Part shown: in pieces, positions 2,108 through 61,968 of the stretch
Numbering within the stretch: the first letter of the stretch is position 1
How the letters are laid out: each line of letters begins with the position of its first letter
Origin: Alphaproteobacteria bacterium
Lineage (GTDB): Bacteria > Pseudomonadota > Alphaproteobacteria > CAISOG01
Assembly (NCBI GenBank): GCA_044345375.1
Contig: JBIJBF010000002.1
Location: forward strand, 46,619 to 110,618
Reading direction: 5' to 3'
Length of the DNA stretch: 64,000 nucleotides
Notes under the pieces: model-generated
What the model saw: the letters and a program-made list of their open reading frames with translations, nothing else
What the model was told of the DNA's origin: nothing
Database searches by the model: none
Translations under genes and position numbers: made by a program

Positions 2108-3574
2108 ATGAAGTCAACTTGGGCAAAACTGGCGGTCTTAGGTTGGTTGGGGGTTTGCGCGCTAACCCTTCCGGTGCTGGCAACCCCGTCTGAGGATGGC
2201 GATCGCCTGTACGACAAGGGCTTTTTTCCGCAGGCCTTGGCGAAATACCAGGCCGAGTTGCGCACCACCAATGGCTGTGTTGGCACTTATGATTTGCGGC
2301 GCCCCCAGGTGCAACGGGCGCTCAAACAACTGGGGTCGATGTATGATAGTGGGGAGGGGGTGGCGGGCAATAGTCCCGATCCCAGCAAGGCGTTGCGTTG
2401 TTACACCAACCTTGGCGACTACGCCACCGCCCGTATTTTTGTGCGGCTTGGCGATATGCACACCACCGCCACCGGCTATCCCACCAACCAAGCGCCCGAT
2501 TTCCAAAAGGCCTTTAACGCCTATTGGAAGGCGGTGGGCAAGGGGGATAGCGGCGCCAAGATTAAGCTGGGGCGGATGTATCTTAATGGGCCATACCCCG
2601 CCGATGACAACCCCAATGCCTTTAACAACAACGACCGGCAACGCTATCAATACGCCGTCAATTTGCTGTTGGAATCCGCCAAATTTGACAACCCGCAATC
2701 GCAATTTTATCTGGGGCAGGTGGCGCAAAAGGGCTGGGGCTGCAACGCCAGCGACGTAAGGGCGTGGGGATGCGTGAAAAATGATGACGGCGGCAGCTAT
2801 GGCACGCCAACCCCAGCACTGGCCACCACTTGGTATGAAAAAGCTGCGCGGGGAAATTACGCGCCGGCGATGACCGCGCTGGCCAAACTGGCTGAGGGGG
2901 CTGGCAACGCGATTGCTGCCTATACCTGGTATGATTTGGCCAACAAGGCGGGCGATTCCTCCGTCAAGCCCATGGTGCCGCCCAATTGCTGGGAAAACGC
3001 CATGGCCGATCCCAGCACGATGGTTGACGGCGTGTCGGTGTTGGCGCAGGACAACCTGCCCACCTTTGTGGGCAAAAGCTGCACCGAACACACCCTGTAC
3101 AAAACCTATTCCAGCATTACCTATAACCAGGCCAACAACACGATTCTTTATAGCACCACCGATCCCACCCTGCGCACCCAGGCGCTGTATTATTACGTGA
3201 TGTGCGATGCCAATCTGTACCGTCAATCCTGCCAAGATGAAACCAGAACGCCCAAGGGGGTGTTGGCCTTGTCTTATGCGGTGACCGACCCTAACGAGCG
3301 CAGCGAAGCCCTGAAATACTGCACCAACCCTGACAACAACCCGCTGGTGCAACGGCTGAAAAGCAGCACCGACTATGTCAAAAATTCGCTGCTCAACAGC
3401 ATGAATTACAAGGATCGTTGCACGGCGCAATGCCTGTCCAAACTGTACAGCAGCAAAATCGGCCAAAGCCGGGATCCATTTTGGAACGATCCCCATAACG
3501 CCAGCTACCAAACCACCTGCGCCAACGGTTGCCCAAGCGCTAATCCGGCCTGCAGCGGCGGTGGCGGGGGGTAG
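2108..3574 (+). CDS. Secreted Cys-rich protein with degenerate Sel1-like repeats (hypothetical)
   Basis: 488-aa ORF with an N-terminal signal peptide (MKSTWAKLAVLGWLGVCALTLPVLATP). The N-terminal half has Sel1-like A..Y.KA...G...A...LG.MY motifs. The C-terminal half is Cys/Asn/Tyr-rich and ends in a GGGGG tail. The TAG stop is embedded in the recurrent 3' motif. Confidence 0.6.
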   Translation: MKSTWAKLAVLGWLGVCALTLPVLATPSEDGDRLYDKGFFPQALAKYQAELRTTNGCVGTYDLRRPQVQRALKQLGSMYDSGEGVAGNSPDPSKALRCYTNLGDYATARIFVRLGDMHTTATGYPTNQAPDFQKAFNAYWKAVGKGDSGAKIKLGRMYLNGPYPADDNPNAFNNNDRQRYQYAVNLLLESAKFDNPQSQFYLGQVAQKGWGCNASDVRAWGCVKNDDGGSYGTPTPALATTWYEKAARGNYAPAMTALAKLAEGAGNAIAAYTWYDLANKAGDSSVKPMVPPNCWENAMADPSTMVDGVSVLAQDNLPTFVGKSCTEHTLYKTYSSITYNQANNTILYSTTDPTLRTQALYYYVMCDANLYRQSCQDETRTPKGVLALSYAVTDPNERSEALKYCTNPDNNPLVQRLKSSTDYVKNSLLNSMNYKDRCTAQCLSKLYSSKIGQSRDPFWNDPHNASYQTTCANGCPSANPACSGGGGG

Positions 3575-3598
3575 AGCATTTTCCATTTCGCCCACCAC
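3572..3598 (+). repeat. Stop-codon-overlapping 3' motif, copy 1 (TAGAGCATTTTCCATTTCGCCCACCAC)
   Basis: It begins at the TAG stop of the 2108..3574 gene. It belongs to a five-member motif family in this window. Confidence 0.7.
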
Positions 3599-3669
3599 GT
3601 CGTCAGGCTACGGACTCGCCGTGCTCACGTATATAGGATACGCTCCGCGCGCCTCACCTTGCCTTGCCT

Positions 3670-3696
3670 GTGGTGAACGAAAGCGAAAACGCTCTA
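3670..3696 (-). repeat. Stop-codon-overlapping 3' motif, copy 2 (sense on minus strand: TAGAGCGTTTTCGCTTTCGTTCACCAC)
   Basis: The reverse complement begins at the TAG stop of ispE (CTA at 3694-3696). Together with copy 1 it forms an inverted pair separated by ~70 bp between convergent genes. Confidence 0.7.
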
Positions 3697-4539
3697 CTCC
3701 AAAAATCTGGTAAGCGCTAACCAATGGGCATCCGGATGGTTTTGCAGCTGGTGATAGGCTGCCTGAGCCGCCAAGGGCGGAAATATCCCAAAAAGTGCGC
3801 TGCCGCTGCCGGTCATGCCGCTTAGCAAACAGTTAGGTTGCTGTTGCAGCGCTTGCCTTAGCCTCGCCAAGCTGGGGTTCAGGGCGGCGGCCACGGGATA
3901 GAGATCGTTGTCGTCTTCTGCTCCCGCTGCCTGCGCCCCTGCGGTTTGCGCAAGTTTGGCAAACAGCTGCGCCGTCGATTGCTTGGCCTGCGGCATCACC
4001 AGCACCACCGACGCGCCGATCAGCTCTGGGGATAAGGCCATTGGTTCTACATGCTGCCCCACCCCTGTTACCACGGCTGGCTGGTTGTACAGACAAACCG
4101 GCACATCCGCGCCCAACCAATCATGCCACGGGGCGGCGTCCACCATCGCCTTATCCACGCCGGTCAGCATCATAAGCCCGCGAATCACCGCCGCTGCATC
4201 GGCGCTGCCCCCGCCCAATCCTGCGCCAGATGGGATGCGCTTGGTCAACTCGATTTGCACCGGCGGCAGGGTGGGGCAAAACCGCTGACGAAAAAGCGCT
4301 GCCGCCCTTAGCGCGAGATTGTTGGCAGTATCAGGAATATCGGCGGTGATCGCGCCATCAAGTTGCAGCTGATCGGTGGTTTCGGTGGGGGCAAGCAGGC
4401 GGATCGTCAGGTTATCCGCCAGTGCCAAAAAGGCGATGTTGCTGCGCAGCAGGTGATAGCCATCGGCCTGCCGCCCCAGAACTTTTAGGGAAAGATTCAG
4501 TTTGGCGTTGGCGTGGCCGACCCAAGTGGTGTTCGTCAT
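3694..4539 (-). CDS. ispE: 4-diphosphocytidyl-2-C-methyl-D-erythritol kinase
   Basis: 281 aa. The N-terminus AKLNLSLKVLGRQADGYHLL and the GHMP-kinase motif IPSGAGLGGGSADAAAV are present. Confidence 0.85.
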   Translation of the reverse strand: MTNTTWVGHANAKLNLSLKVLGRQADGYHLLRSNIAFLALADNLTIRLLAPTETTDQLQLDGAITADIPDTANNLALRAAALFRQRFCPTLPPVQIELTKRIPSGAGLGGGSADAAAVIRGLMMLTGVDKAMVDAAPWHDWLGADVPVCLYNQPAVVTGVGQHVEPMALSPELIGASVVLVMPQAKQSTAQLFAKLAQTAGAQAAGAEDDNDLYPVAAALNPSLARLRQALQQQPNCLLSGMTGSGSALFGIFPPLAAQAAYHQLQNHPDAHWLALTRFLE

Positions 4540-6377: not shown

Positions 6378-6450
6378 CCGCCCCGCCCGTTGGCAGAAAG
6401 GCGGTTGGGAAAACGAACGACGCGCTAAGGATAGGGGGGCAAAATTTGTC

Positions 6451-7293: not shown

Positions 7294-7303
7294 ACCCGGT
7301 CCC

Positions 7304-7321
7304 TAAAGCGAAAATGCTCTA
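7304..7321 (-). repeat. Stop-codon-overlapping 3' motif, copy 3 (sense on minus strand: TAGAGCATTTTCGCTTTAG)
   Basis: It abuts the orphan GST 3'-end duplicate and has the same sequence as the motif at the other gene ends. Confidence 0.65.
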
Positions 7322-7366
7322 CCCATCCAGCTCAGCATAGTGCGGCGCAGGGGGCAGGCTGACTGG
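7319..7366 (-). repeat. Orphan duplicate of the GST 3' terminus (last 13-15 codons + stop)
   Basis: The 48-bp segment ctacccatccaGctcagcAtaGtgcggCgcagggggcaggctg... is the imperfect direct repeat of 8297..8344. On the minus strand it encodes ...SLPPAPHYAELDG*, identical in amino acid sequence to the C-terminus of the intact GST. All four nucleotide differences are synonymous. Confidence 0.8.
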
Positions 7367-8296
7367 GTGATTAAGGCGCGCGACAATCAATATTTAGATT
7401 TTTTGGTTGATATTTGATTTGGCATCTGTTATTTTTACGATCAATTTATCAACTAATAAAAATCAAATGGAGAGACAAGATGCCTGACGTGATTAATTAT
7501 ATGTTATTTGAGGGCAGGTTTATGGAATACGGGAGTTTAATTACGCCGTCGGCCTACAGAACACTCAATGATGCCGTAGAAAACCCTAGATATACTGTTG
7601 GTTTTTGTGGTGGCAAAGAATATAGATATTTTGACCTGACTAAAATTAGAGCTACCAACCCTAACGCCGGATTGAACTGGAGCAACTGGGATAACGAGAA
7701 TTTGCGCGATGCGATTAACTCCTGTGGAGCCTTGGTCGACTTAAGCGGTTCGCATCTGCGTTCCGTATCTCTGAATGGGGCAAATCTGGCGGGGGCGAAT
7801 CTGAGCAATGCGAACCTGTGTGAGGCGAGCCTAAACGGTGCAGATCTAACGATGGCAAACCTGTCTTATTCTGTGATGTTTCAAGCCGGTCTAAAGGGGT
7901 CGAAGCTATTGGGGGCGCAGATGGTGAAGACGCATTTGGGGAATGCGGATCTGAGAGAGGCGGATCTGAGTTGGGCGAATCTGCAGGGGGCGAATCTGGA
8001 GAGTTACCTGTGCTACTTCAATCTGTGGGGAGAGAAGATGCAAGGGGAGAATCTGCGGGGGGCGAAGATGAAAGGGACGAATTTACAAGACGCTGAGTTT
8101 ACAGCGATATGGAAGCAACTAACAGTTGAGCAAGCCTTAGGGGCACGAAAATTGAGACCTGATCAGCGTGATTTGGTGTATCAACACAATACGTGGCTTC
8201 CAGCCCTTACAACCCAAATCTCCAACGGGTTGGAATGGGTGAATCAGCGCCATCCGGAGTTTTTCTACGGACGGTAGGTGAGGTTTTTACCTGCCC
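7367..8296 (+). mobile_element. Low-GC ~0.93-kb inserted cassette carrying a pentapeptide-repeat gene, lying between the two copies of the GST 3' end
   Basis: There is a sharp GC drop (an AT-rich promoter-like stretch at 7381-7500). The cassette is flanked by the 45-bp imperfect direct repeats 7319..7366 and 8297..8344. No recombinase is present. Confidence 0.6.
7414..8277 (+). CDS. Pentapeptide-repeat protein
   Basis: 287 aa with ~25 consecutive A(D/N)LxX pentapeptides (ANLAGANLSNANLCEASLNGADLTMANLSYS...ADLREADLSWANLQGANL). The GC content is low relative to the flanks. Confidence 0.8.
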   Translation: MIWHLLFLRSIYQLIKIKWRDKMPDVINYMLFEGRFMEYGSLITPSAYRTLNDAVENPRYTVGFCGGKEYRYFDLTKIRATNPNAGLNWSNWDNENLRDAINSCGALVDLSGSHLRSVSLNGANLAGANLSNANLCEASLNGADLTMANLSYSVMFQAGLKGSKLLGAQMVKTHLGNADLREADLSWANLQGANLESYLCYFNLWGEKMQGENLRGAKMKGTNLQDAEFTAIWKQLTVEQALGARKLRPDQRDLVYQHNTWLPALTTQISNGLEWVNQRHPEFFYGR

Positions 8297-9025
8297 CTAC
8301 CCATCCAACTCAGCGTAATGCGGGGCAGGGGGCAGGCTGGACAGGCGGTCTTGCAGCAGGCTGCGAAAGGCGGGGCGCGATTTTACCCGCGTGTACCAAT
8401 CCTTGGCGGCCAACTGCCGATCCCATGGAACATCGTTGATATAGTCCAATACGGATAGATGCGCCGCCGCCGCGCAATCGGCCACGCTGAAATGATCGCC
8501 GGCCAACCAATTGCGCCGCTCAGCCAAATAGCCGATGTAGTTCAGATGGAAGATGATGTTTTCACGACCCGCCCGAATTGCCCCCGAATCCGGCTCGCCG
8601 CGGCCGGTGATGCGCTTCATCACCCGCTCACCCAACAAATTTTTGGTCACCTCCTGCGCGAATTTTTCGTCAAACCAGCTGATCAGGCGGCGCACCTCAG
8701 CCCGCTCCTGCGGGGTTTGCCCCAGCAGGTTGATGCCGCCCTCAACCTCCTCAAGATACTCCACAATCGCCTGGCTGCCCACCACCGCCTGGTCGTTGCC
8801 ATCAATCATCACCGGCACCTGGCCCGCGGGGTTGATCGCCAAGAATTCGGGGCGCCGCTGCCAATAGGATTCCACCTCAAACGCGGCATGCAGCTTTTTC
8901 TCAGCCAGCACCAACCGCACCTTGCGCGAATAGGGGCACAGCGGAAAATGGAACAGGGTGCGAAGGCCTGGCGCCAGATGGCTGTTGTTCTGGAAATGAT
9001 TTTGGGTCGCCGTGGAATAATTCAT
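8297..9025 (-). CDS. Glutathione S-transferase family protein
   Basis: The GST N-terminal thioredoxin-like motif is present (LFHFPLCPYSRKVRLVLAEKKL...VPVMIDGN), followed by a C-terminal alpha domain. The preferred start is MNYSTAT at 9025. The ORF table gives 9049. Confidence 0.8.
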   Translation of the reverse strand: MNYSTATQNHFQNNSHLAPGLRTLFHFPLCPYSRKVRLVLAEKKLHAAFEVESYWQRRPEFLAINPAGQVPVMIDGNDQAVVGSQAIVEYLEEVEGGINLLGQTPQERAEVRRLISWFDEKFAQEVTKNLLGERVMKRITGRGEPDSGAIRAGRENIIFHLNYIGYLAERRNWLAGDHFSVADCAAAAHLSVLDYINDVPWDRQLAAKDWYTRVKSRPAFRSLLQDRLSSLPPAPHYAELDG

Positions 9026-9057
9026 GATCGTTCTTTCTTTTACTAACAAAACACTTG

Positions 9058-9783: not shown

Positions 9784-9905
9784 GTATATGTTTCCCACGA
9801 TAGTTTTTTAGGCAGCTTAAGTTTTAGGCAAAAGCTTGGCGTTTGAGAAGGAAAATCTTTGTCCCCCTTGCAAGGGGGGGGCTACCATGGCCGGCTTATA
9901 TCTTC

Positions 9906-10054
9906 TATAGTCATTCCACTTTAAAAACTTACAGTGCTGCAAATGTCATGAGGTCTGCGATACGGTGCTCATGTACCCCATCGGTACACTCCGCTCCGTT
10001 TCTCGACCTCATGACATTTTCGCAGCTGTAACTTTTTAAATTGAAACGACTATA
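9906..10054. mobile_element. 149-bp palindromic MITE-like element, copy 1
   Basis: It has ~27-bp imperfect terminal inverted repeats (TATAGTCATTCCACTTTAAAAACTTAC ... GTAACTTTTTAAATTGAAACGACTATA) and TA-rich flanks. The whole element is a near-perfect palindrome. A second copy, ~95% identical, lies at 47748..47896. Confidence 0.75.
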
Positions 10055-10101
10055 TGGTGTTTTTTTGTTTCCAAAGCCAAGCTCTTTAAGAATTTACCCC
10101 C

Positions 10102-11862
10102 ATGACCAAGCCAACATCGGATTTTCTGCCCAGCAAGTCGTTATGGAAACGCCTGATGCAAGGCTATGTGCGGCGGGAGGTGGGCAGCTTGGCGGTAGCC
10201 CTGCTGTGCATGGCGTTGGCGGCGGGCGCAACGGCGGCCTTGGCCAAGTTGATGGAGCCGGTGCTGGATCAGGTGTTTGTGCAAAAAAACGCGGGCAGCT
10301 TAACCCGCATCGCCGGGCTGGTGCTGGCCACCTTTGTGATCAAGGGGTTGGCCACCTATGGCCAGACCGTGCTGATGACCGGCGTGGGGCTTAGAATCGT
10401 TGCCAGATTGCAAGAACAGGTGGGCAGCCACCTGCTGGGCGCGGATTTGGCCTATTTCCAACGCCACCCCACCGGTGTGCTGTTGACCCATATGATTCAG
10501 GATATTCAGCAGTTGCGCTACGCGGTGTCGAACGCCATCACCGCGATTGGCAAAGACAGCCTGACCCTGATCGCCCTGCTTGCCGTGATGTTCTGGCAGG
10601 ATTGGCGCCTGGCCTGTCTGGCCTTTATCGCCTTTCCGGTGGCGATTTTGCCGATTCGTTGGATTGGTCGGCGGGTACGGCGTGAGGCGGCCAGTGCGCA
10701 GGTGCAGCAGGCCAACCTCTCAAGCCTGTTGATGCAGCTGTTTCAGGGCATTCGCTACGTCAAGGCCTATGGGGCTGAGGGGGTGGAGTCGGCGCGGCTG
10801 GCGGCGCAGGTGGCCGACACCCAAACCCACCAGATGATGCTAACGCGGGTTAAGGCGGCGGCGCACCCCCTGATGGAGGGGTTGGGGGGCGTGGCGATCG
10901 TGCTGGTGATCATTTATGGCGGCGAGCAGGTGATGGCCGGCACCCGCACCACCGGCAGCTTTTTCTCTTTCATCACCGCCCTGCTGCTGGCCTATGAGCC
11001 GCTCAAACGCCTGACCCATCTGAACGCCAATCTGCAGGAGGGGTTGGCGAGTGCCGCCCGGGTGTTTGCCCTGCTCGACACCCCAAGGCAGGTGGTGGAT
11101 ATCCATGGCGCCGCTGCCCTGCGATCCAGCGGCGGTGAAATTCGGTTCGATCAGGTCAGCTTTGGCTATAGCGACGAACAATCGGTGCTTGACCGCCTAA
11201 GCTTTACCATTCCCGCGGGGCAAACGGTGGCGATTGTTGGGCCATCGGGGGCTGGCAAATCCACCATTGCCAACCTGATGCTGCGCTTTCAGGATCCTTT
11301 GGCTGGGCAGGTGCTGGTGGATGGCCAGGATATCGCCGCGGTGACCCAGGCCAGCCTGCGCCAATCGATCGCCTTTGTGGGTCAAGAAATTTACCTGTTT
11401 AACGCCAGCGTTAAGGATAATGTTGCGTATAATCAGGAACATGCCAGCCAGAAAAACATTGAATCGGCGGTGGCGGCGGCGGGCGCGGCCGGTTTTGTGG
11501 CGGAACTGCCCGATGGCTTGGCAAGTTTGGTGGGCGAATTGGGCAACCGCCTGTCGGGCGGCCAGCGGCAACGCATCGCCCTGGCCAGAGCGTTGCTGCG
11601 CGATGCGCCAATTCTGTTGTTGGATGAGGCCACCTCAGCCCTTGACCCGGAATCCGAACGCCACGTGCTGGCCAGCCTAAAACGGCTGCGGATGGGCAAA
11701 ACCACGGTGATGATCGCCCACCGCCTGTCAACCATTGTCGACGCCGACCAAATCTTGGTCCTATCAGCCGGCCAGTTGGTTGAGCAGGGACGGCACGAGA
11801 AACTGCTGGCCAGCGGCGGCCTGTACAGCCAACTTTATCAGCAACCTGAGGGGGGTGCGTAA
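10102..11862 (+). CDS. ABC transporter permease/ATPase, MsbA-like lipid exporter family
   Basis: 586 aa. The N-terminal region has 6 TM segments. The C-terminal NBD carries Walker A GPSGAGKST, the signature LSGGQRQRIALARALL and Walker B ILLLDEATSALD. Confidence 0.85.
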   Translation: MTKPTSDFLPSKSLWKRLMQGYVRREVGSLAVALLCMALAAGATAALAKLMEPVLDQVFVQKNAGSLTRIAGLVLATFVIKGLATYGQTVLMTGVGLRIVARLQEQVGSHLLGADLAYFQRHPTGVLLTHMIQDIQQLRYAVSNAITAIGKDSLTLIALLAVMFWQDWRLACLAFIAFPVAILPIRWIGRRVRREAASAQVQQANLSSLLMQLFQGIRYVKAYGAEGVESARLAAQVADTQTHQMMLTRVKAAAHPLMEGLGGVAIVLVIIYGGEQVMAGTRTTGSFFSFITALLLAYEPLKRLTHLNANLQEGLASAARVFALLDTPRQVVDIHGAAALRSSGGEIRFDQVSFGYSDEQSVLDRLSFTIPAGQTVAIVGPSGAGKSTIANLMLRFQDPLAGQVLVDGQDIAAVTQASLRQSIAFVGQEIYLFNASVKDNVAYNQEHASQKNIESAVAAAGAAGFVAELPDGLASLVGELGNRLSGGQRQRIALARALLRDAPILLLDEATSALDPESERHVLASLKRLRMGKTTVMIAHRLSTIVDADQILVLSAGQLVEQGRHEKLLASGGLYSQLYQQPEGGA

Positions 11863-11872
11863 GGCGATCGTA

Positions 11873-11928
11873 AATTCCCCTCCCGCGGAGGGGTGGCAGG
11901 CGCAGCCTGACGGGGTGGTTTTTTCAGG
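11873..11928. repeat. REP-like GC-rich palindromic unit (locus A)
   Basis: aattcccctcccgcggaggggtggcaggcgcagcctgacggggtgg. This is the same unit family as at 13606, 41286, 46383 and 56566. Confidence 0.8.
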
Positions 11929-11932
11929 GTGT

Positions 11933-13447
11933 TTAACGCCCCCTTTCCTGCTCTGCCAGCCTTTGCGCATCTAGATATGCCAGCGTTTCCTGTGCCGCTT
12001 GTTTGACCACGGAATCTGTCGCTTCAGCTGCGATGATTCGTAGTGTTTTGTCTGCATCTGGTGCAAGATTTCCTACCGCTTGGAAGCCCTGAATAATGGT
12101 TTGCCGCACATAACGATCGTCTTGTGTATCTTCGGCTATCCTTAACAGTGTTTCTTGTAATGGGAAATCTTGGGGTGTTTTTTGCAGAAGTGCGGTGATC
12201 GCGGCGCAACGCAGGCCAGGTGAGTTTCCTTTATAGGTTGCGGTTTCTAGCCATCTCTCGTGCGAATTTTTATTCTGATCTATAGATGTTATCGTTTCTA
12301 TCGCAGATTCCTTGACCAAGGAATCTGTCGCTTTGTTCGCGATCATGTGTAGTTTTGTGTATGCATTTGGTTCAAGGTTTTCTACCCCTTGGAAACCCTT
12401 AATAATAGCAACCCTAAGGTCAAAAATTTCTGCTTCATTTTCTGCTATTTCTAAAATTTTTAATTGCATGGAGTAATCTTGGGGTAGATATTGCAAAAGT
12501 TTGGTAATCGCTGTTTGACGTTTGCTAAGACATAGGTCTGCATTATTTGCGTTTCTACACAAATCATTTTTATTTTTTTCTAAATCAACAGACTTCAGCG
12601 TGCTATTTATATCGTTTTTTACATATTGAACCCGATGTCGTGCTGCAATTTGTTGTAGTCTTTTGTATATATTTGGTTTGGAGTATGCTATTCCGGAGAA
12701 ATTACCAATAATATTTTGTATTAATTGGCATTCTGGCGAGTAATCGTTTGTTTCTGTGTTTTCAATAACTGTTAACAAGCAATTTTGAACATGTTCATTG
12801 TTTGGCATAAGATACAAAAGAACATTAATTATTTGGATTTTATTTTTTAAATATTCTTCTTGATTGATGGCGATTTCACGCAGCCACTCTCTAACCGTCG
12901 AATGATGCCAAGCATGACGATTCCTAGGATCTGTTATATAATCCAAGATTTGCTGATGTGATTGTTGTGATTGCCGTGCGGCCGTTGTAAGAACTTGGCT
13001 AGCTCTATTAGAAAGTTCAGGGTGGCTTCTGCCGATACAGTCGCCTATTTCCTTCATGACTTCTGGGTTTTCTATCGATGGGACAAGAGCATTGATTGCT
13101 GCAAGGCCAACAACGACATGCTCGGGAGAATGTTCGTGTAACAAGGCACCAATCACCTCTTGTAGCTCGGCATTTCCTGAAACGGTATGGCCTAAGGCAT
13201 TAATCGCCGCTGCGCGAATCTCCGGTAATCGTTGCGTGTTTTGAGCGCAGGTCAGCAACTCCTGTTGCACAACAGGATATTTTGCATAGTTTTTGAAAAT
13301 CCAGATGAGAGTTTTAGTATTCGGACCGTTTTCACTGAAAACAAGATCTTTCGGATCATTAAGCCGTGGCAGCAATTTCTCGAAGAACAGCTCTGCCCAA
13401 AACCCCATTGGACGCACAAATTCCGCTGAAACTTCTGTTGTGCCCAT
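11933..13447 (-). CDS. HEAT-repeat (PBS-lyase-like) protein, hypothetical
   Basis: 504-aa ORF made of degenerate HEAT-like helical repeats. Most of the gene is AT-rich (12250-13450) and the 3' part has a diverged internal tandem duplication. It is flanked on both sides by REP-like elements. Confidence 0.6.
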   Translation of the reverse strand: MGTTEVSAEFVRPMGFWAELFFEKLLPRLNDPKDLVFSENGPNTKTLIWIFKNYAKYPVVQQELLTCAQNTQRLPEIRAAAINALGHTVSGNAELQEVIGALLHEHSPEHVVVGLAAINALVPSIENPEVMKEIGDCIGRSHPELSNRASQVLTTAARQSQQSHQQILDYITDPRNRHAWHHSTVREWLREIAINQEEYLKNKIQIINVLLYLMPNNEHVQNCLLTVIENTETNDYSPECQLIQNIIGNFSGIAYSKPNIYKRLQQIAARHRVQYVKNDINSTLKSVDLEKNKNDLCRNANNADLCLSKRQTAITKLLQYLPQDYSMQLKILEIAENEAEIFDLRVAIIKGFQGVENLEPNAYTKLHMIANKATDSLVKESAIETITSIDQNKNSHERWLETATYKGNSPGLRCAAITALLQKTPQDFPLQETLLRIAEDTQDDRYVRQTIIQGFQAVGNLAPDADKTLRIIAAEATDSVVKQAAQETLAYLDAQRLAEQERGR

Positions 13448-13605
13448 GAAAAACCCCTTAAGAAAGATATCAACGAATAAAACTATATTTTATTTTAAAT
13501 GTCAATAAATGTTATTGTAGCATAGGGTTTTTGGTTTGGTGTTGCTGTTGGCGTGCCTGGCCCGTTAGGCTGTGCCGGACAAAGCGGGGGGGCGCAAAGA
13601 AAGAA

Positions 13606-13706
13606 CCACCCCGTCAGGCTTCGCCTGCCACCCCTCCGCGGGAGGGGAATAAGTAAGACGTCCCTAAATTCCCCTCCTGCGGAGGGGTGCCCGAAGGGCG
13701 GGGTGG
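13606..13706. repeat. REP-like element cluster (two inverted units), locus B
   Basis: ccaccccgtcaggcttcgcctgccacccctccgcgggaggggaat, then after a spacer the inverted unit aattcccctcctgcggaggggtgcccgaagggcggggtgg. It lies directly downstream of rho and the HEAT gene. Confidence 0.8.
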
Positions 13707-13740
13707 TTCTTGCGGGTAATACCCCGTCAGAAAGCAACTC

Positions 13741-15247: not shown

Positions 15248-15275
15248 GGTGGTGGACGAAAACGAAAATGCTCTA
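15248..15275 (-). repeat. Stop-codon-overlapping 3' motif, copy 4 (sense on minus strand: TAGAGCATTTTCGTTTTCGTCCACCAC)
   Basis: It begins at the TAG stop of putA (CTA 15273-15275). Confidence 0.7.
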
Positions 15276-18200
15276 CCCCAGCACCATCAGGCTGGCGTTA
15301 CCGCCGGCGGCTGCGGTGTTGGTGCTGATGGCGCGTTCGATCACCAGCCGTTCCAACGGCAACCCTGACGATTCCTGATCAAGGGTGATCAGCGGAATGA
15401 TCGCGCCATCGCGCTTCGCCAGCGCCTGCGCGGTGCTAAGGCGCGCGGCCGCATCGCCGTGCAGCACCACCGCCCCCAACTCCACCTCAGCATGCTGCCA
15501 ATCCGTCACCAGCGTGATGGCCGCCTGCACCAAGGCGGGCAGGCGTTGCAGCAGCGGTTTTGCCTCTATTGGCCACAGCACGCTGCAGCCCAGATTCAGC
15601 AGGGCGGCCAGCTGCATCAGGCGATCCTCCTCCCGCACAGCCAGGCTCAGCACCGATTGCCGTGGCAGCAGCTGGTAGCGGTTTTCCTCCCCCGTTGGCC
15701 CAGTCAGCAGGCTGTCGAATAGCAGCGGCGGTGCGCTTTGATAAGCGATCGCGCGGGCAGCCACCGCTGGATAACCATTGGCCTTCGCCCAGATTTGCAT
15801 AACCTCTAAGGCCTCAGCATTGGCCAAGCGGCGCGGGGTCAGCTGTTGCGAATCCCCCGCAAATGTGGCCGCGACGGTCAGCATGTCGGCCGGTGCCTCG
15901 GCCAGCAGCCGGCTTAGATAAAGCGGCCCGCCTGCCTTGGGGCCTGTGCCAGAAAGACCCTCCCCACCAAAGGGCTGCACGCCCACCACCGCGCCCACCA
16001 TGTTGCGGTTGACATAGATATTGCCAGCCTTCGCCCGCGCCACCACCGCCTCGATCACGCTGTCCAGACGGGTGTGGAGGCCAAAGGTCAGCCCATAGCC
16101 GGTGGCGTTGATCTGATCGATCAGCGGCAGCAGACCCCCCTGCTTAAAGGTGATCACATGCAGAATTGGCCCAAACACCTCCCCCTGCAGGTCATCCAGC
16201 TGGTTCAGGGTGATCAGGGTTGGCTGGATGAACAGGCCGTGCTGTTGGTCAGGTGCCGAGAGTTGGCCAAGCGGCACCACCCTAAGGCCGCGCTGTTGCA
16301 TCGCCGCCACATGCGCCTCCAGCCGTTGCAGGGCGGTGGGGTCGATGATTGGGCCGATGTCGGTGGCAAGCGCAGCAGGGTTGCCCAACTGCAGCTGGGC
16401 CATTGCGCCCTGCAGCATGGTCAGCAACGCTGGCGCCACCTCCTCCTGCACGCAAAGCACCCGCAGGGCTGAGCAGCGTTGACCAGCGCTGTCAAAGGCT
16501 GAGGTCAGGATATCGCCCACCACCTGCTCCAACAGGGCTGAGGAATCGACGATCATCGCATTTTGGCCACCGGTTTCGGCAATAAAGGTCACGGGGCGGC
16601 CACGGCTGTCCAGCCGTTGGGCGAGTTGGCGTTGGATCAGGCGGGCCACCGCGGTTGATCCGGTAAACAACACCCCCTCAACCCTGGCATCGCCCACCAA
16701 TTGCGCGCCGAGCGTGGCGCCAGAGCCGGGCAGCAGTTGCAGCGCGGTTTTGGGAATGCCCGCCTGCCACAACAGCTTAACGGTTTCGGCGGCGATCAAC
16801 CCGGTTGGTTCGGCCGGTTTGGCCAGCACCTTATTGCCCGCCGCCAATGCCGCAACGATCTGACCGGTGAAAATCGCCAGCGGGAAGTTCCATGGGCTGA
16901 TGCACAGCACCACGCCCAAGGGGGTTGGCGGCGCATCAGTGGGGTCAAGCAGGCCGCTGCGCAACTGGGCGGCGTAATAGTGCAAAAAGTCCACCGCCTC
17001 CCGCAGTTCGGATAGCGCGTTGAAACAAGTTTTGCCAGCCTCACGCATCAGCAGGCTTAGCAGCATTGGGCGCTGCTGTTGCAGCAACTGGGCGGCCTGA
17101 TCCAACATGTCCGCGCGCCTTGCCAGTGGGGTTGCTGCCCAGCTGATATCGCTATGGGCAAGCGCCAGCGCGTGTTCCGCCTCAGCCAAGGTGGCGTGGC
17201 GCAGCTGGCCAACCAGCTCAGCTCTATCGGCGGGGTTATAGACGTCGGTAACGGCGGTGATGCTGTCCACCACTAACGGCGCGGCCAGCAGCGGGCCCGC
17301 GCTCCAGACCGTGGTTTTCAGGGTATCCAGTTGGTCGCTAAGGGCGGCAAGCGCCAGTTCGTTGCGCAGATCAAGCCCCGCCGCATTGGGACGCTTCGCG
17401 CCATACAGCTTGGGTGGTTGGGGGATGCCAGCATGCGCCGCCCCATGCCCACCCTGCGCCTCAATCAGGGTGAACGGATCTTGCAGCAGCTGGTCGATGG
17501 CGACCATTGGGTTGGCCAGCTGGTTGACGAATGAGCTGTTGGCGCCGTTTTCCAGCAGGCGGCGCACCAGATAGGCCAGCAGCGTTTCATGGGTGCCCAC
17601 CGGCGCATAGACGCGGCACGGACGGGCAATGTTGGTGGCATTGGGGGGCACCTGATCATACAGGGCATCGCCCATGCCGTGCAGGCATTGAAACTCATAA
17701 GTGTCATGAGCGCGGTTCACCGCCCCCGCCAACTGCTCAACCATCGCCACGGTCAGGGCGTTGTGGGTGGCAAACTGCGGGTAGATTTGCTCAGAGGCCG
17801 CCAACAGCTTTTGCGCGCAAACCAAATAGGACAGATCGGTGTGGGTTTTTTGGGTGAACACCGGATAGTCGGCCAGCCCCGCCAGCTGTGCGCGTTTGAT
17901 TTCGCTGTCCCAATAGGCACCCTTGACCAGCCGCACCATCAACCGCCGCTGGTGGTGTTTGGCCAAATCGATGATGTGGTCGATCACATAGGGGCAGCGT
18001 TTCTGATAGGCCTGCACCACAAAGCCCAACCCCTGCCAGCCGGCCAGCGTGGGCGCCTGACAAAGCTGCTCAAGCAGGTCAAGGGAGATGTCCAGCCGTT
18101 CCGCCTCCTCAGCATCAATATTCAGGCCGATGTCGTAATGCTTGGCCAGCTCAGCCAACTCCAGCAGATCGGGCGCCAATTCTGTCAACACCCGTGCCCG

Positions 18201-19037
18201 TTGGGTGCGGTCATAGCGGGGGTGCAGCGCGGAAAGCTTGATGGAAATGCCAGGCCCCTCATGCACGCCGCGCCCGTCCGCCTGCCGGCCGATCGCGTGG
18301 ATGGCATCCAGATAGGCCTGTTTATAGGTGGCCGCGTCTTTTGCCGTCAGCGCGGCCTCCCCCAACATATCATCGGAGTAGCGAAAGCCCTTGGCCTCCA
18401 TCGCCCGCGCCCTGACCAGCGCTGCATCGATGGTCTCCCCCATCACAAATTGCTGGCCAAGCACGCGCATCCCAAGCCCCACCGCCCTGCGGATCAGTGG
18501 CGCGGTCAAACGGTAGGTCAGCCGTTTCAGTGTCTGGGCGGTGCTAGCAGCATCAACATTGGTCAATTGGCCGGTCAGCACCAGGCCAAGGGTGGCGGTG
18601 TTCACTAGCGTTGACGCACTTTTCCCCACATGGCGTCCCCATTGCTGGCGCGCCAATTTGTCGCGGATCAGGGCATCTCTGGTGGCGGCATCGGGAATGC
18701 GCAAAAAGGCCTCAGCCAGGCACATCAGGGCGATCCCCTCAGCCAGCGACAGGCCGTATTCCTGCAACAATCCCTGCACCAAATTGCGGCGCGTGGCGGC
18801 GGGATTGCTCCTGCGGGCCTGCTCAACCAGCTGGCGGGCGGTTGCCTTAGCGTTCAGCCGCAAGTCTTGGGGGAATGTTGCCGCCGCCAGCAGCGCGGCC
18901 ACCACCTGACCTTCCGGCAACAGGGTGGCATCGCTGATCGCCTGCCGCAGGGGGGGCAGGGTTGCGGGCTGGCGGTCATTTAGGTGGGAAGCAACAGACA
19001 TGGAACGCTCAATATGGGCAGAGGGGTTGGGAGACAT
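15273..19037 (-). CDS. putA: Bifunctional proline dehydrogenase / delta-1-pyrroline-5-carboxylate dehydrogenase
   Basis: 1254 aa with a PutA-type N-terminal region, a proline dehydrogenase barrel and a C-terminal aldehyde dehydrogenase domain (FTGSTAVARLI, ETGGQNAMIVD). Confidence 0.9.
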   Translation of the reverse strand: MSPNPSAHIERSMSVASHLNDRQPATLPPLRQAISDATLLPEGQVVAALLAAATFPQDLRLNAKATARQLVEQARRSNPAATRRNLVQGLLQEYGLSLAEGIALMCLAEAFLRIPDAATRDALIRDKLARQQWGRHVGKSASTLVNTATLGLVLTGQLTNVDAASTAQTLKRLTYRLTAPLIRRAVGLGMRVLGQQFVMGETIDAALVRARAMEAKGFRYSDDMLGEAALTAKDAATYKQAYLDAIHAIGRQADGRGVHEGPGISIKLSALHPRYDRTQRARVLTELAPDLLELAELAKHYDIGLNIDAEEAERLDISLDLLEQLCQAPTLAGWQGLGFVVQAYQKRCPYVIDHIIDLAKHHQRRLMVRLVKGAYWDSEIKRAQLAGLADYPVFTQKTHTDLSYLVCAQKLLAASEQIYPQFATHNALTVAMVEQLAGAVNRAHDTYEFQCLHGMGDALYDQVPPNATNIARPCRVYAPVGTHETLLAYLVRRLLENGANSSFVNQLANPMVAIDQLLQDPFTLIEAQGGHGAAHAGIPQPPKLYGAKRPNAAGLDLRNELALAALSDQLDTLKTTVWSAGPLLAAPLVVDSITAVTDVYNPADRAELVGQLRHATLAEAEHALALAHSDISWAATPLARRADMLDQAAQLLQQQRPMLLSLLMREAGKTCFNALSELREAVDFLHYYAAQLRSGLLDPTDAPPTPLGVVLCISPWNFPLAIFTGQIVAALAAGNKVLAKPAEPTGLIAAETVKLLWQAGIPKTALQLLPGSGATLGAQLVGDARVEGVLFTGSTAVARLIQRQLAQRLDSRGRPVTFIAETGGQNAMIVDSSALLEQVVGDILTSAFDSAGQRCSALRVLCVQEEVAPALLTMLQGAMAQLQLGNPAALATDIGPIIDPTALQRLEAHVAAMQQRGLRVVPLGQLSAPDQQHGLFIQPTLITLNQLDDLQGEVFGPILHVITFKQGGLLPLIDQINATGYGLTFGLHTRLDSVIEAVVARAKAGNIYVNRNMVGAVVGVQPFGGEGLSGTGPKAGGPLYLSRLLAEAPADMLTVAATFAGDSQQLTPRRLANAEALEVMQIWAKANGYPAVAARAIAYQSAPPLLFDSLLTGPTGEENRYQLLPRQSVLSLAVREEDRLMQLAALLNLGCSVLWPIEAKPLLQRLPALVQAAITLVTDWQHAEVELGAVVLHGDAAARLSTAQALAKRDGAIIPLITLDQESSGLPLERLVIERAISTNTAAAGGNASLMVLG

Positions 19038-41271: not shown

Positions 41272-41285
41272 GGGGGGCGTAAGGA

Positions 41286-41419
41286 CCACCCCGTCAGGCT
41301 TCGCCTGCCACCCCTCCGTTATCATTTTGTCAGGCAAAGCCTGACGGGGGGGAGGGGAATAAGTGCGTCGGGTAATTCCCTTCCTGCGGAGGGGTGGCAG
41401 GCAAAGCCTGACGGGGTGG
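41286..41419. repeat. REP-like element cluster (three units), locus C
   Basis: ccaccccgtcaggcttcgcctgccacccctcc ... caggcaaagcctgacggggggaggggaat ... aattcccttcctgcggaggggtggcaggcaaagcctgacggggtgg. It lies between recX-like and polA. Confidence 0.8.
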
Positions 41420-41444
41420 TTGCTGCGGAAGGGTTGCTGAACTT

Positions 41445-46382: not shown

Positions 46383-46468
46383 CACCCCTCCAAGAGGGAG
46401 GGGAATTGATGCGGCCGTCTTATTCCCCTCCCTCTTGGAGGGGTGGCAGGCGAAGCCTGACGGGGTGG
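46383..46468. repeat. REP-like element pair, locus D
   Basis: cacccctccaagagggaggggaatt...attcccctccctcttggaggggtggcaggcgaagcctgacggggtgg. It lies downstream of secF and rpsD, which are convergent. Confidence 0.8.
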
Positions 46469-46564
46469 TTTTGCCTGCCTGAATCTTCCAAAAAAATGGC
46501 CCATCTCGAATCTGAGATAGGCCATTTTTGATAATGTTTGAAGGTCTTTCCTGGGAAAGAAACC

Positions 46565-47182
46565 CTACTGCGAGTAGAACTCAACCACCAGATTGGGTTC
46601 CATCTGCACCGGATAGGGCACCTCAGCCATTTTGGGGGCATGCAGGAATTTGCAGGTCATCAGCTTGTGGTTGACTTCCAAATATTCAGGCGTGTCACGC
46701 TCAGGCGATTCAACCGCTGCCAACAACACCTCAAGCTGTTTGGAGCTTTCCCGCACGCTGATGACATCATTGGCGGACACGAGATAGGAGGAGATGTTGA
46801 CGCGGCGACCATTGACCTGGATATGGCCATGGTTCACAAACTGACGTGCCGCAAACATGGTTGGCACAAATTTGGCGCGGTAGACCACCGTGTCCAAACG
46901 GCATTCCAACAGGCCAATCAGGTTTTCTGAGGTGTCGCCCTTGCGGCGTTGCGCCTCAGCAAAAAAGCGTCGGAATTGCCGTTCCGACAGATTGGCGTAA
47001 TAGCCCTTAAGTTTTTGTTTGGCCATCAAATGCACACCAAAATCCGACAATTTGCGGCCACGGGTGCCGTGTTGGCCTGGCCGTGTTTGGCGGCGGTTGT
47101 GTGGGCTTTTGGCGCGTCCCCAAAGATTTAAGCCCAGGCGACGATCAATTTTGTATTTAGCAGCAATCCGTTTGGTCATGAC
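46565..47182 (-). CDS. rpsD: 30S ribosomal protein S4
   Basis: [30 protein letters not shown]...[15 protein letters not shown]... is the S4 signature. The preferred start is at 47182. Confidence 0.92.
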
Positions 47183-47603: not shown

Positions 47604-47679
47604 TGGTGCCCGCAGCCAGAATCGAACTGACGACCTAACGATTACGAATCGTTTGCTCTACCAACTGAGCTATGCGGGC
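47604..47679 (-). tRNA. tRNA-Thr (CGT)
   Basis: On the minus strand: GCCCGCATAGCTCAGTTGGTAGAGCAAACGATTCGTAATCGTTAGGTCGTCAGTTCGATTCTGGCTGCGGGCACCA. It is 76 nt with the anticodon loop TT-CGT-AA. Confidence 0.85.
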
Positions 47680-47747: not shown

Positions 47748-47896
47748 TATCGTCATTCCACTTTAAAAACTTACAGTGCTGCAAATGTCATGGGGTCTGC
47801 GATACGGTGCTCATGTACGCGTAGGTACACTCCGCTCCGTTTCTCGACCTCATGACATTTTCGCAGTCTGTAACTTTTTAAATTGAAACGACTATA
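47748..47896. mobile_element. 149-bp palindromic MITE-like element, copy 2
   Basis: ~95% identical to 9906..10054. It lies between tRNA-Thr and serA, which are divergent. Confidence 0.75.
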
Positions 47897-50845: not shown

Positions 50846-50930
50846 GCGTCCTTAAGGTTTTGCGTCGGTTTGTTGTCATACGGCCGTTGTATGATGTGCG
50901 TGAACGACGTCAGGCTAAGAAAGGATCAAG

Positions 50931-52037
50931 ATGGAACGCTACATCGCCTTGTTAAAAGAATTCCTGCAGGAGCTCACAGCCTCGTCAGAGGTTTCTGCTG
51001 AGGCGCTTTTTGCCGAAACGCAGGCCAAGGCAAAGGGCGGGGATGTGGTGGCGCAACGAAATTTGGGTGTGCTCTACGCCCTTGGGGCTGGGGTTGGCCA
51101 AGACGCGGCCAAGGCGCTGCACTGGTTTCAATTGGCGGCGTATAGCGACGATGCCGTGGCGCAATATATCTTGGGCGTGATTTATGAGGAGGGGGCGGGG
51201 GAAGACAGCGATCCTGCTGAGGCGCTCAAATGGTATCGTAATTCGGCCGAGCAGGGGTATGCAACCGCGCAAAACTGTCTTGGTTGGATGTACCGTTGGG
51301 GCGTTGGGGTGCCCCAGGATTACGCTGAAGCGGTCAAGTGGTACCGCAAAGCCGCGAAGCAGGGGGATGCAAAGGCGCAAAGAAATCTTGCTGTCATGTA
51401 TTATGAGGGTTATGGGGTTCGCAAAGACGCTGCAAAGGCGATGGTATGGTTCAGAGAGGCGGCAGAACAAGGAAATGTATCTGCGCAATTCTTGCTTGGA
51501 GCTATGTATTCCGCAGGTGGGGAAGATTTGCCTAAGAACAATATCGAAGCGGTCAAATGGTACCGCAAAGCCGCTGAGCAGGGGGATGTATCCGCGCAAT
51601 TCTTGCTTGGGACTATGTATTTCGTAGGTGACGGATTGCCTCGGAACGATATCGAAGCGGTCAAATGGTACCGCAAAGCAGCGAAGCAGGGTTATGCATC
51701 CGCCCAACACTCGCTTGGGGTTATGTATGAGTGGGGGTGGGGCGTTCCCAAAGACGCAGCCACGGCGGTCAAATGGTACCGCAAATCAGCGAAGCAGGGC
51801 GATAGGTATGGACAGAGAGATCTTGGCCTGAGTTATGCCAATGGCCATGGGGTGCCCAAGAACAAGGAAAAAGCCTATATCTGGTTGGAGCGAGCTGTTG
51901 CACAGGGGAAGGAGGATGCCTGCAAAATGCGCGATGAAATTGCCGCCCAACTAACCCCAGCGCAGCTTGCCCGTGCGAAAAAGGCGGCCAGCCAGCCTTT
52001 GGACGTGGAGGTGTTCGACGCTGAATCAACCGCTTGA
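50931..52037 (+). CDS. Sel1-repeat protein (9 tandem Sel1 repeats), no signal peptide
   Basis: Repeated 36-aa units of the form AEAVKWYRKAAEQGDVSAQFLLGTMYFVGDGLPRND. The DNA at 51100-51850 is a tandem array of ~108-bp repeats with lower GC. Confidence 0.75.
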   Translation: MERYIALLKEFLQELTASSEVSAEALFAETQAKAKGGDVVAQRNLGVLYALGAGVGQDAAKALHWFQLAAYSDDAVAQYILGVIYEEGAGEDSDPAEALKWYRNSAEQGYATAQNCLGWMYRWGVGVPQDYAEAVKWYRKAAKQGDAKAQRNLAVMYYEGYGVRKDAAKAMVWFREAAEQGNVSAQFLLGAMYSAGGEDLPKNNIEAVKWYRKAAEQGDVSAQFLLGTMYFVGDGLPRNDIEAVKWYRKAAKQGYASAQHSLGVMYEWGWGVPKDAATAVKWYRKSAKQGDRYGQRDLGLSYANGHGVPKNKEKAYIWLERAVAQGKEDACKMRDEIAAQLTPAQLARAKKAASQPLDVEVFDAESTA

Positions 52038-52067
52038 CCTGTTGGGTGATCCCCGCTTTGATAGGTC

Positions 52068-53462: not shown

Positions 53463-53464
53463 GT

Positions 53465-54047: not shown

Positions 54048-54176
54048 GGGTTTTATTATGGGCTAATTATTGGTTTTGTCAAGTTCTATCCAATAATAAT
54101 TTTACGCCAGCATGCGGTACCAACACCACAAAAATCCCGCTTGCGCCGGTTGGGCAATGGCGGCACAATCGCCGGC

Positions 54177-56525: not shown

Positions 56526-56565
56526 GGACCGTTGGTAGTTTCAGTGGAGGAGGTGTCAGCAAGAA

Positions 56566-56610
56566 CCACCCCGTCAGGCTTCGCCTGCCACCCCTCCGCG
56601 GGAGGGGAAT
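56566..56610. repeat. REP-like unit, locus E
   Basis: ccaccccgtcaggcttcgcctgccacccctccgcgggaggggaat lies between uvrD and pheT, which are convergent. Confidence 0.8.
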
Positions 56611-56634
56611 TTAGGGCATCCAATATCCCCCCCC

Positions 56635-60170: not shown

Positions 60171-60176
60171 GGCCAG

Positions 60177-60533
60177 CTACGCAGCGGCGCGTTTGGCCTG
60201 CTCAACCAATTGCGTAAAATTGGCTGGCTGGTGGATGGCCAGTTCGGCCAACACCTTGCGATCAATCTCAATACCAGCCAGGCCAAGCCCGTTGATAAAG
60301 GCGCTATAGGTGATGCCATGGGCACGCACACCGGCGTTGATCCGCACGATCCACAATTTGCGCATGTCGCGTTTTTTGTTGCGACGGTCGCGATAGGCGT
60401 ACTGCAGACCCTTTTCAACTTTTTCAATCGCAACGCGAAAACAAGTGGAATTACGGCCGCGATAGCCCTTGGCCATATCCAGAATTTTTTTGTGGCGGGC
60501 GCGAACCTGAACACCGCGTTTTACCCGTGCCAT
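60177..60533 (-). CDS. rplT: 50S ribosomal protein L20
   Basis: [27 protein letters not shown]... is the L20 signature. Confidence 0.95.
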
Positions 60534-60560
60534 GATAACTCTCCTATTAAAAACAAAAAT

Positions 60561-60758
60561 TTATGCGTAGGGCATGTAGATGGCCAAACGGCCGGTATCG
60601 GTAGAATGCACCACGGTGGTGCCGCGGGCATCACGAATGCGTTTTTGTGGGCGGCAGCGCATGTTGTGGCGCTTTCCTGCATAGGGGCGCAACCAAAGCC
60701 CGCTGGCGGTTCTGGAAAAACGCTTTTTGGCAGCGCTTTTGGTTTTCAATTTTGTCAT
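60561..60758 (-). CDS. rpmI: 50S ribosomal protein L35
   Basis: MTKLKTKSAAKKRFSRTASG..., 65 aa. Confidence 0.9.
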   Translation of the reverse strand: MTKLKTKSAAKKRFSRTASGLWLRPYAGKRHNMRCRPQKRIRDARGTTVVHSTDTGRLAIYMPYA

Positions 60759-60934
60759 GATATCGACCTACAAAAATTTACAGTTCTGTTTGACCTAATT
60801 GCCGTTCATCCACTATAGTCCGTGGCTTACCACAATCAAGATTTCTTACGCGAACGAAACTTATAACCTAGTTTATAAGCGATTAGCAAGATCTTTTTGT
60901 GGTCTATTTTTTGCAAACCTTATGAGCCACCCGT

Positions 60935-61951
60935 TTGATGTCCCCAATTTTTTCTGCCCTTGCTAGTTCGTCGGCACAGTTTCATGCAGCAGGGGGGGTA
61001 GAGGGGGCGCCCAGCTTAACAGATGTGCAGGCAGCGATGCTGAGGCTGCACCGGTTTCACTTAGCCACCACGCCGTTGCTGCCATCGCCCGATTTGGCTG
61101 CGCAGATTTCTGGGCAGGTTTGGTTAAAGGCTGAGCATCGTCAGGTCACCGGCAGTTTTAAATTGCGCGGCGCCCTGAACCGGCTGTTGCAGTTCAACGA
61201 GGCGGAGCGGCAGGCGGGGGTGGTTTCCTACTCCTCAGGCAATTTTGGCATTGCGGTGGCGTTTGGCGGCTGGAATCTGGGCATTCCGGTGACCATTGTG
61301 GTGCCCCAAGATGCGCCGGCGGCGAAATTGCACAAAATTCGGTTGATGGGCGCCAAGATTGTGTTGGCCGATCGCACCAGCGACAACCGCATCCAACTGG
61401 CCCGTGATTTGGCGCAACAAACCGGCGCGGTGCTGCTGCCCTTTGCGGATCAGCCGCAGGTGATTGCCGGCGCGGGCACGGTGGTGTTGGAAATGCTGGA
61501 ACAGTTGCGGGCGCAAAGCCTCGACACGGTTTTGGTGCCCTGTGGCGGGGGCAGTTTGACGGCGGGCAGCGCGCTGGTGCTGCAATCCCTTAGCCCCAAA
61601 ACGCGGGTGATCGCGGTGGAACCGGTGGGGCTGGACGATACCGCGCGGTCTTTGGCGGCGGGCAAAATTTTGGCCAATGATCCGGCGGCGCGCAGCATCT
61701 GTGATTCATTGCTGACCCGCCAACCCAGCCCTTTGACCTTCGCGATGCTGCAGGCTGGTCAAGCCGCCAACCAACTGGCCTGCATGGCGGTCGAAGATAT
61801 CGCGGTGCAACATGCGGTGGTGTGGTTGGCGAAACGGCTGCATCAGGTGGTTGAGCCTGGCGGGGCGATCGCCCTGGCCGCCCTGCTTAGCCAGCCACAA
61901 AATTTTGTCGGGCAACGGGTTGGGGTGCTGCTGACCGGGGCGAACGGATAG
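60935..61951 (+). CDS. PLP-dependent threonine/serine dehydratase-like enzyme
   Basis: The PLP-binding lysine is in LKAEHRQVTGSFKLRGALN. A Gly-rich loop (SSGNFGIAVA) and the tryptophan-synthase-beta-like fold II are present. The TAG stop is embedded in the 3' motif. Confidence 0.7.
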   Translation: MMSPIFSALASSSAQFHAAGGVEGAPSLTDVQAAMLRLHRFHLATTPLLPSPDLAAQISGQVWLKAEHRQVTGSFKLRGALNRLLQFNEAERQAGVVSYSSGNFGIAVAFGGWNLGIPVTIVVPQDAPAAKLHKIRLMGAKIVLADRTSDNRIQLARDLAQQTGAVLLPFADQPQVIAGAGTVVLEMLEQLRAQSLDTVLVPCGGGSLTAGSALVLQSLSPKTRVIAVEPVGLDDTARSLAAGKILANDPAARSICDSLLTRQPSPLTFAMLQAGQAANQLACMAVEDIAVQHAVVWLAKRLHQVVEPGGAIALAALLSQPQNFVGQRVGVLLTGANG

Positions 61952-61968
61952 AGCATTTTCCGTTTTGG
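61949..61968 (+). repeat. Stop-codon-overlapping 3' motif, copy 5 (TAGAGCATTTTCCGTTTTGG)
   Basis: It begins at the TAG stop of the 60935..61951 gene. Confidence 0.65.

Follow-up and report, generated by a model that had tools for sequence, protein, structure and literature searches.

A stop-codon motif in a 64-kb alphaproteobacterial sequence and its probable origin as the terminal inverted repeat of an IS630-related miniature element

The window analyzed here, a 64-kb (64,000-nucleotide) stretch of contig JBIJBF010000002.1 from an Alphaproteobacteria bacterium (assembly GCA_044345375.1), contains five copies of a short motif whose first triplet, TAG, lies at the 3' ends of unrelated genes. 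Two copies face each other as the ends of a 125-bp element, a putative miniature inverted-repeat transposable element (MITE), which separates a Cys-rich/Sel1-like gene from the convergent ispE gene. The other three are solo copies that follow an orphan fragment of a GST gene, putA, and a gene for a PLP-dependent enzyme. The motif copies and the features that belong with them are as follows, in window coordinates:

3572..3696, putative complete MITE of 125 bp, counting the TA at each end, flanked by the convergent Cys-rich/Sel1-like gene and ispE, which have its two terminal TAGs as their stops
3572..3598, plus strand, left terminal inverted repeat TAGAGCATTTTCCATTTCGCCCACCAC, which supplies the TAG stop of the open reading frame (ORF) 2108-3574
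3670..3696, minus strand, right terminal inverted repeat TAGAGCGTTTTCGCTTTCGTTCACCAC, which supplies the TAG stop of ispE (3694-4539)
7303..7321, minus strand, solo end fragment of 19 nt, 10 nt from the UDG stop
7322..7364, minus strand, orphan copy of the GST gene's final 43 nt, with its end on the TAG of the repeat at 7321
8297..9025, minus strand, intact GST gene, with the end GGATGGG TAG GGGC and no repeat, the equivalent of an empty site with a native TAG
15249..15275, minus strand, solo full-length repeat of 27 nt, with the stop of putA (15273-19037) as its first triplet
61949..61970, plus strand, solo end fragment of ~22 nt; its TAG is the stop of a PLP-dependent serine racemase/threonine dehydratase-like gene (60938-61951)

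The motif observation is real and nonrandom. A pattern search recovered all five copies reported by the initial annotation, with the TAG beginning at 3572(+), 3696(-), 7321(-), 15275(-), and 61949(+). The 19-nt pattern TAGAGCRTTTTCSNTTTYG, with at most two mismatches allowed, has 5 matches in the window, compared with 0.05 expected from shuffled sequences, and the 10-nt core GAGCRTTTTC occurs at the same five places and nowhere else (0.33 expected). Sequence likeness reaches 3 to 4 nt 5' of the TAG (GGGG, GGAG, TGGG, GGGG, and CGGA in the five copies), and CACCAC continues the motif in three copies, as had been described. The ORFs 2108-3574(+), 3694-4539(-), 15273-19037(-), and 60935-61951(+), of 488, 281, 1254, and 338 codons, respectively, terminate precisely at the TAG of the motif. 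Frames of at least 250 codons are closed by 17 of the 651 TAG triplets in the window and by four of the five motif copies (P ~ 2.3e-6). The initial statement that each copy begins at the stop codon of a gene is therefore correct for four long genes but not for the copy at 7321(-), whose TAG closes a frame of merely 24 codons. The last 43 nt before this TAG duplicate the 3' end of the real GST gene at 8297, with both sequences encoding SLPPAPHYAELDG followed by the stop, which bears out the description of an orphan GST terminus and identifies this copy as the stranded end of a real gene. In all, the window contains an intact copy of 125 bp and three solo ends that are apparently decayed, and together these terminate four or five genes.

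The alignment of the flanks, proposed earlier as a means of defining the extent of the motif, reveals that the copies at 3572(+) and 3696(-) are the 27-nt inverted ends of one element; they are identical at 22 of 27 positions and have TA at both extremities. The element contains no ORF, and its RNA is predicted to fold into a single long hairpin (-57.4 kcal/mol; z = -3.2). A lone copy of the motif forms no hairpin, in agreement with the initial annotation, but this does not extend to the pair. Neither CUCCAAAAA nor CCCCCCGCC, the sequences that come after the hairpin of the intact copy on its two strands, contains a U-tract. An intrinsic (Rho-independent) terminator was rejected, since the solo copies have no hairpin and the hairpin of the intact copy has no U-tract. 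A search of the window with Rfam 15 at the gathering threshold returned two tRNAs only and no RNA family at the motif. The locus is a clear example of two convergent genes that both take their stop codons from the ends of a single putative MITE.

The 19-nt pattern was also used to scan metagenomes, in which at least 120 loci were found; none of the matches listed came from this organism. Many of the listed loci are ends of repeated elements, and some are ends of full insertion sequences (ISs). Locus L158 contains a 1126-bp element (822-1947) with ends complementary at 23 of 24 positions and TA on both sides, and its ORFs match the Pfam domains PF01710 HTH_Tnp_IS630 (E = 3.7e-6) and PF13358 DDE_3 (E = 3e-30). 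A similar IS of 1060 bp is present in L178 (221-1280), and 19 to 20 nt of the ends of both are identical to the window motif. In L162, the C terminus of a DDE_3 domain stops 20 nt inside the terminal sequence. A plasmid of Bradyrhizobium barranii (NZ_CP096256.1) carries a gene annotated in RefSeq as "IS630 family transposase" between the ends TAGAGCATTTTCCGA and TAGAGCGTTTTCCGA, with the flanks C-TA...TA-G, and the first 13 to 14 nt of this IS are identical to TAGAGC(A/G)TTTTCC... of the window. Non-autonomous elements with these ends are also present, namely, a family of 115- to 116-bp elements at 17 distinct insertion sites in peat-bog metagenomes and other MITE families of 103 to 107 bp. 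Since the same sequence ends complete, TA-flanked IS630-family elements, the motif can be assigned as an IS630-family terminal inverted repeat, with the match to autonomous HTH_Tnp_IS630- and DDE_3-containing ISs being to those of other organisms (L158, L178, and Bradyrhizobium). To this extent the motif is part of a larger known IS family, an outcome that the initial annotation had set against its own reading. The IS630-family ISs resemble the window element in having TA at each end and a repeat of ~25 to 30 nt, whereas the window element has no transposase, is only 125 bp long, and has a lineage-specific inner part of the repeat (..CACCAC).

Several further searches were negative. A blastn search of the 125-bp element against plasmids gave chance matches only, and a scan of viral contigs for the long form of the motif with CACCAC gave no match. 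The loose pattern AGAGCRTTTTCNNTTTNG had at least 120 chance matches in genome contigs, and CACCAC follows none of those listed. A tblastn match of the IS630 HTH domain to window positions 46790-46909 is weak and antisense to rpsD and was rejected as spurious. As a separate observation, palindromes of ~40 bp (TAGAGC...GCTCTA) that consist of two abutting IS630-type ends, such as TAGAGCGTTTTCCGTTTCGATGGAATCGAAACGGGGCTCTAG, occur in several unrelated metagenome contigs (L187, L219, L223, L232, L235, L139, and L210), some of them directly on the stops of long genes.

Taken together, the motif is very probably the terminal inverted repeat of a non-autonomous MITE derived from an IS of the IS630 family (Tc1/mariner superfamily), with the solo ends being decayed copies. 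One candidate of the initial annotation, that a dispersed miniature element provides the stop codon, was correct in substance, although the inverted-repeat pair and the transposon family were not recognized. A different mobile origin, in which REP/REPIN sequences were mobilized by a RAYT (Y1) transposase, with the inverted units forming a REPIN doublet and the solo copies being REP singlets beginning with GTAG, is very improbable. Four of the five copies do read G-TAG at the 5' end, the doublet has a REPIN-like geometry (~125 bp, with ~70 nt between the units), and it is extragenic between convergent genes; however, the 27-nt unit is not palindromic and forms no hairpin alone, with only the paired units folding, its sequence matches the ends of TA-flanked DDE (IS630) elements, and no RAYT gene was seen in the window.

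The association with stop codons may be explained by the way in which such elements insert and are lost. IS630-family elements with this terminal sequence have TA on both sides and G as their first base. With TA as the duplicated target, each junction would read TA plus G, which is TAG on the outward strand. The copies may have entered TAA or TAG stops that already existed, by insertion at the TA, and an insertion there would rebuild the stop at the same position, leave the protein unchanged, and have almost no cost to the host. The genome is ~92% coding in a rough set of 49 genes, and copies with no stop-codon role would have been deleted from such a compact genome. An end that supplies the only stop of a gene could not be fully deleted, which would allow gene-proximal ends to survive, and the intact copy would be pinned by a stop on both sides. 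The solo ends and their perfect association with stops may thus result from the deletion of nonfunctional copies and the retention of ends that are a gene's only stop. The element family appears to be inactive or extinct in this species: the window contains no transposase, and the strain contigs showed no insertions specific to a strain.

The proteins concerned were compared with their homologs. PutA ends in ...NTAAAGGNASLMVLG and aligns to the very last residue of S. meliloti PutA (5kf6; 1235/1235), and the IspE C terminus, LTRFLE, aligns within one residue with LTRKLDP of a sister lineage. PutA, IspE, and GST terminate at their natural C termini, which, together with the native TAG at the GST empty site, fits insertion into the TA of an existing stop codon. 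Readthrough of the TAG into a peptide, S-(I/V)-F-x-F-x-H-H, was considered and rejected, because this sequence is found as an inverted-repeat end in transposons and the last residue of PutA is already its natural one.

Strains of the same species provide a further comparison. In the contigs L252 and L253, the GST gene ends ...GGATGG(G/T) TAG and continues as GGGGTTGGC into the UDG stop, with no repeat, no orphan copy, and no pentapeptide-repeat gene, whereas the orphan GST end in the window reads ...GGATGGG TAG AGCATTTTC. The strains without the repeat have a TAG at the identical position, which indicates that a native TAG stood where the TAG of the repeat now stands. The empty site (GGG-TA-GGGG) and the filled site (GGG-TA-GAGC) fit a TA duplication on the left side, and the right side is rearranged. 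A comparison of presence and absence had been proposed in the initial annotation; the absence of the repeat from L252 and L253 lies inside a larger rearrangement. The presence/absence locus itself is as follows:

window 7322-8296; L252 12640-12800; L253 9145-9305, presence or absence of the pentapeptide-repeat gene

Strains differ in whether they carry the pentapeptide-repeat gene (7480-8277) and the AT-rich region upstream of it; where present, these are bounded by the 43-nt duplication of the GST 3' end (4 mismatches). The last four UDG codons also differ between strains (AEAD versus ADSA before the stop). The initial annotation had named an attachment site for an element that targets gene 3' ends as a candidate and had placed the GST-cassette insertion at one copy. 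This candidate is not supported: four of the five copies have no integrated sequence, and at the GST copy the gain or loss of the pentapeptide region belongs to a larger rearrangement, which has a 43-nt duplication of its own. A tRNA fragment or attachment site, suggested by the resemblance of GGTAGAGC to a D-arm, was rejected because there is no tRNA-like remainder.

The remaining copies also vary among strains. The putA repeat has a 1-nt insertion within the core, TAGAG[G]CATTTTC, in three strain contigs, and the repeat at 61949 differs by substitutions and a 15-nt tandem duplication. A search of 165 kb of contigs from strains, which cover the middle part of the window, and of ~11 kb beyond the window ends gave no extra motif copies. 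The evidence of dispersion and mobility consists, over the 64 kb, of a single full copy plus three solo ends, with one strain-variable site that lies within the larger rearrangement. The 125-bp element was found in every strain contig, and several contigs break within it; three metagenome contigs of the same species (L123, L124, and L245) end inside the element at different positions. These breaks suggest that related sequence elsewhere in the genome disrupts the assemblies.

The strain differences bear on the proposal of a conserved RNA element in the 3' untranslated region, that is, a functional 3'-end signal in which the 19 to 27 nt after the stop were kept or co-opted for the binding of a regulator or an RNase, for termination, or for mRNA stability. 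The three solo copies do keep 19 to 27 nt nearly identical although the rest of the element is lost, every copy is in the sense orientation directly 3' of a gene, and the intact copy would give each of the two convergent mRNAs a strong hairpin at its 3' end, as described for Correia elements (PMC2229807). Such a signal is nevertheless improbable. The solo copies have no secondary structure or U-tract, the motif is missing from most gene ends and has no counterpart in Rfam, and in unrelated phyla this sequence serves as an end to which a transposase binds; in addition, the core insertion, substitutions, and 15-nt duplication seen within the species argue for neutral drift and against a constrained RNA or protein-binding site.

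Several observations weigh against a simple history of MITE insertion and decay. An IS630 transposase with these ends was not found in ~75 kb of this organism, and the tblastn search of the window was negative. No partner ends were found near the three solo copies (7321, 15275, and 61949), even in a position weight matrix search at very low score thresholds, so that they were once complete MITEs is something that we infer. Removal of the 125-bp element would leave GGGGGG-TA-CTCC, which provides a stop for neither flanking gene, and the intact copy cannot be accounted for by one simple insertion; it probably arose from two insertions followed by recombination or from an insertion and an in-frame deletion. 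The PLP-dependent enzyme ends just past its last conserved motif, 5 to 16 residues before the ends of its homologs, and the motif TAG may not be at the ancestral stop in this gene. The comparison of empty and filled GST sites is confounded by the larger rearrangement, which also altered the last four UDG codons. Finally, the flank before the TA is GRR in all five window copies (G/A-TA), in contrast to the C/T-TA flanks (Y-TA-R) of IS630-family copies elsewhere, and in the window, GRR-TA sites are occupied at 4 of 7 stop codons and at 0 of 26 intergenic sites (P = 0.0009), which random insertion at TA does not predict.

The flank data raise the alternative that the bias arises at insertion and not through survival, with the transposase preferring a GRR-TA(R)-like target or sensing gene 3' ends. 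In addition to the uniform flanks and the occupancy of stop-codon sites in the window, the intact and presumably young peat-bog MITEs lie on the stops of real genes at 4 to 5 of 17 sampled ends. IS630 itself prefers CTAG, and the Bradyrhizobium copy is flanked accordingly. Such homing to stop codons is an unlikely alternative: the sites number just five and come from a single genome, promoters, in which selection would act against insertions, are part of the intergenic set, most copies in other organisms are not at stops, and no mechanism is known that would let a DDE transposase recognize a reading frame.

The metagenome copies allow the bias to be examined outside this organism. Among 107 copies from the loci listed, the TAG closes a frame of at least 200 codons in 15, compared with 2 and 4 in the other two frames and 3.9% for random TAGs. 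Seven of the genes stopped in this way are real according to Pfam, with domains that reach the C terminus; they encode an MFS transporter, DAHP synthase, sugar isomerase, Nramp, GH42, histidine kinase, and a TonB-dependent receptor, the last of which ends on its usual aromatic residue. In L188, a 103-bp MITE supplies the stop of a 347-residue alcohol dehydrogenase. The bias toward natural stops in unrelated MITE families is a point of wider interest. It is doubtful, though conceivable, that IS630 repeats with TA-G ends are adapted across many phyla to insert into TAA or TAG stops and rebuild a silent TAG. If the bias does arise at insertion, it would represent a safe-haven strategy that is undocumented for IS630-family elements in the literature searched; homing would convert stops to TAG over time, leave anchored solo ends, and could contribute to stop usage here. 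In the rough 49-gene set, stop usage is unusual for a GC content of 57.8% (TAA, 22; TAG, 20; TGA, 7), and 12 of 16 repeat-free TAG stops have G as the next base.

The window contains two other dispersed repeat families and a tandem repeat. The second family comprises GC-rich hairpins (ACCACCCCGTCAGGCTTCGCCTGCCACCCCTCCGCGGGAGGGGAAT) in intergenic spacers in both orientations, and part of this repeat resembles the interior of the 125-bp element at 3594-3615 (CACCACGTCGTCAGGCTACGG). The third is a 149-bp MITE, the two copies of which are 97 to 100% identical and have ends that are not at gene stops; the copy at 47748-47896 is ~70 nt from a tRNA gene (47607-47679). Their positions are as follows:

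11848-11925, 13598-13716, 41278-41423, 46398-46472, and 56556-56616, GC-rich hairpin repeats
9906-10054 and 47748-47896, 149-bp MITE with ~50-nt inverted ends beginning TATAGTCATTCCAC

A Sel1-repeat gene (368 residues) contains five tandem 108-nt units at 51219-51885, and a protein search for its paralogs returned generic Sel1 proteins only. A HEAT-repeat protein (11933-13447) varies among strains L252 to L256, with 504, 499, and 396 residues and internal repeats of ~309 nt. The organism belongs to an uncultured lineage known from metagenome contigs only; the highest identity of its IspE to any sequence outside the species is 44%, and by IspE the closest relatives with a name are Alphaproteobacteria with 35 to 40% identity. 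In a sister lineage (L247 and L248), the UDG-TPR-ispE synteny is kept, and the motif is absent in 17 kb.

A puzzling sequence motif can thus be explained as transposon relics, and annotators should anticipate TAGAGCRTTTTC after stop codons in many bacteria, where it should not be taken as a regulatory signal. The element is of a known kind and is not a new one. The Correia/NEMIS elements of Neisseria are similar to it in having a length of 100 to 155 bp, inverted ends of ~26 bp, and a transcript that forms a long hairpin, which can affect neighboring mRNAs; their TA duplication has a putative counterpart in the TA at both ends of the window element. They differ in their unrelated sequence and in having ends that create promoters and carry IHF sites, with no stop role described. 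RUP is a MITE derived from IS630-Spn1 that inserts at TA (PMC2229807) and, like the window element, is non-coding and ~107 to 125 bp long, with ends matching an IS630-family IS; RUP is multicopy, as the window element would be with the solo ends counted as copies. However, its sequence and host are unrelated, it has been reported mainly in or near IS elements, and no stop-codon provision has been noted for it. Pneumococcal BOX repeats are modular (boxA/B/C), have different ends and a different presumed transposase, and do not follow the TA-plus-G logic of the window element. They nevertheless provide the precedent for stop-providing repeats, since, as in the window, the repeat encodes the stops of many well-characterized genes, with the stop codons of 36 coding sequences being encoded by BOX repeats with no evident truncation (PMC3049150).

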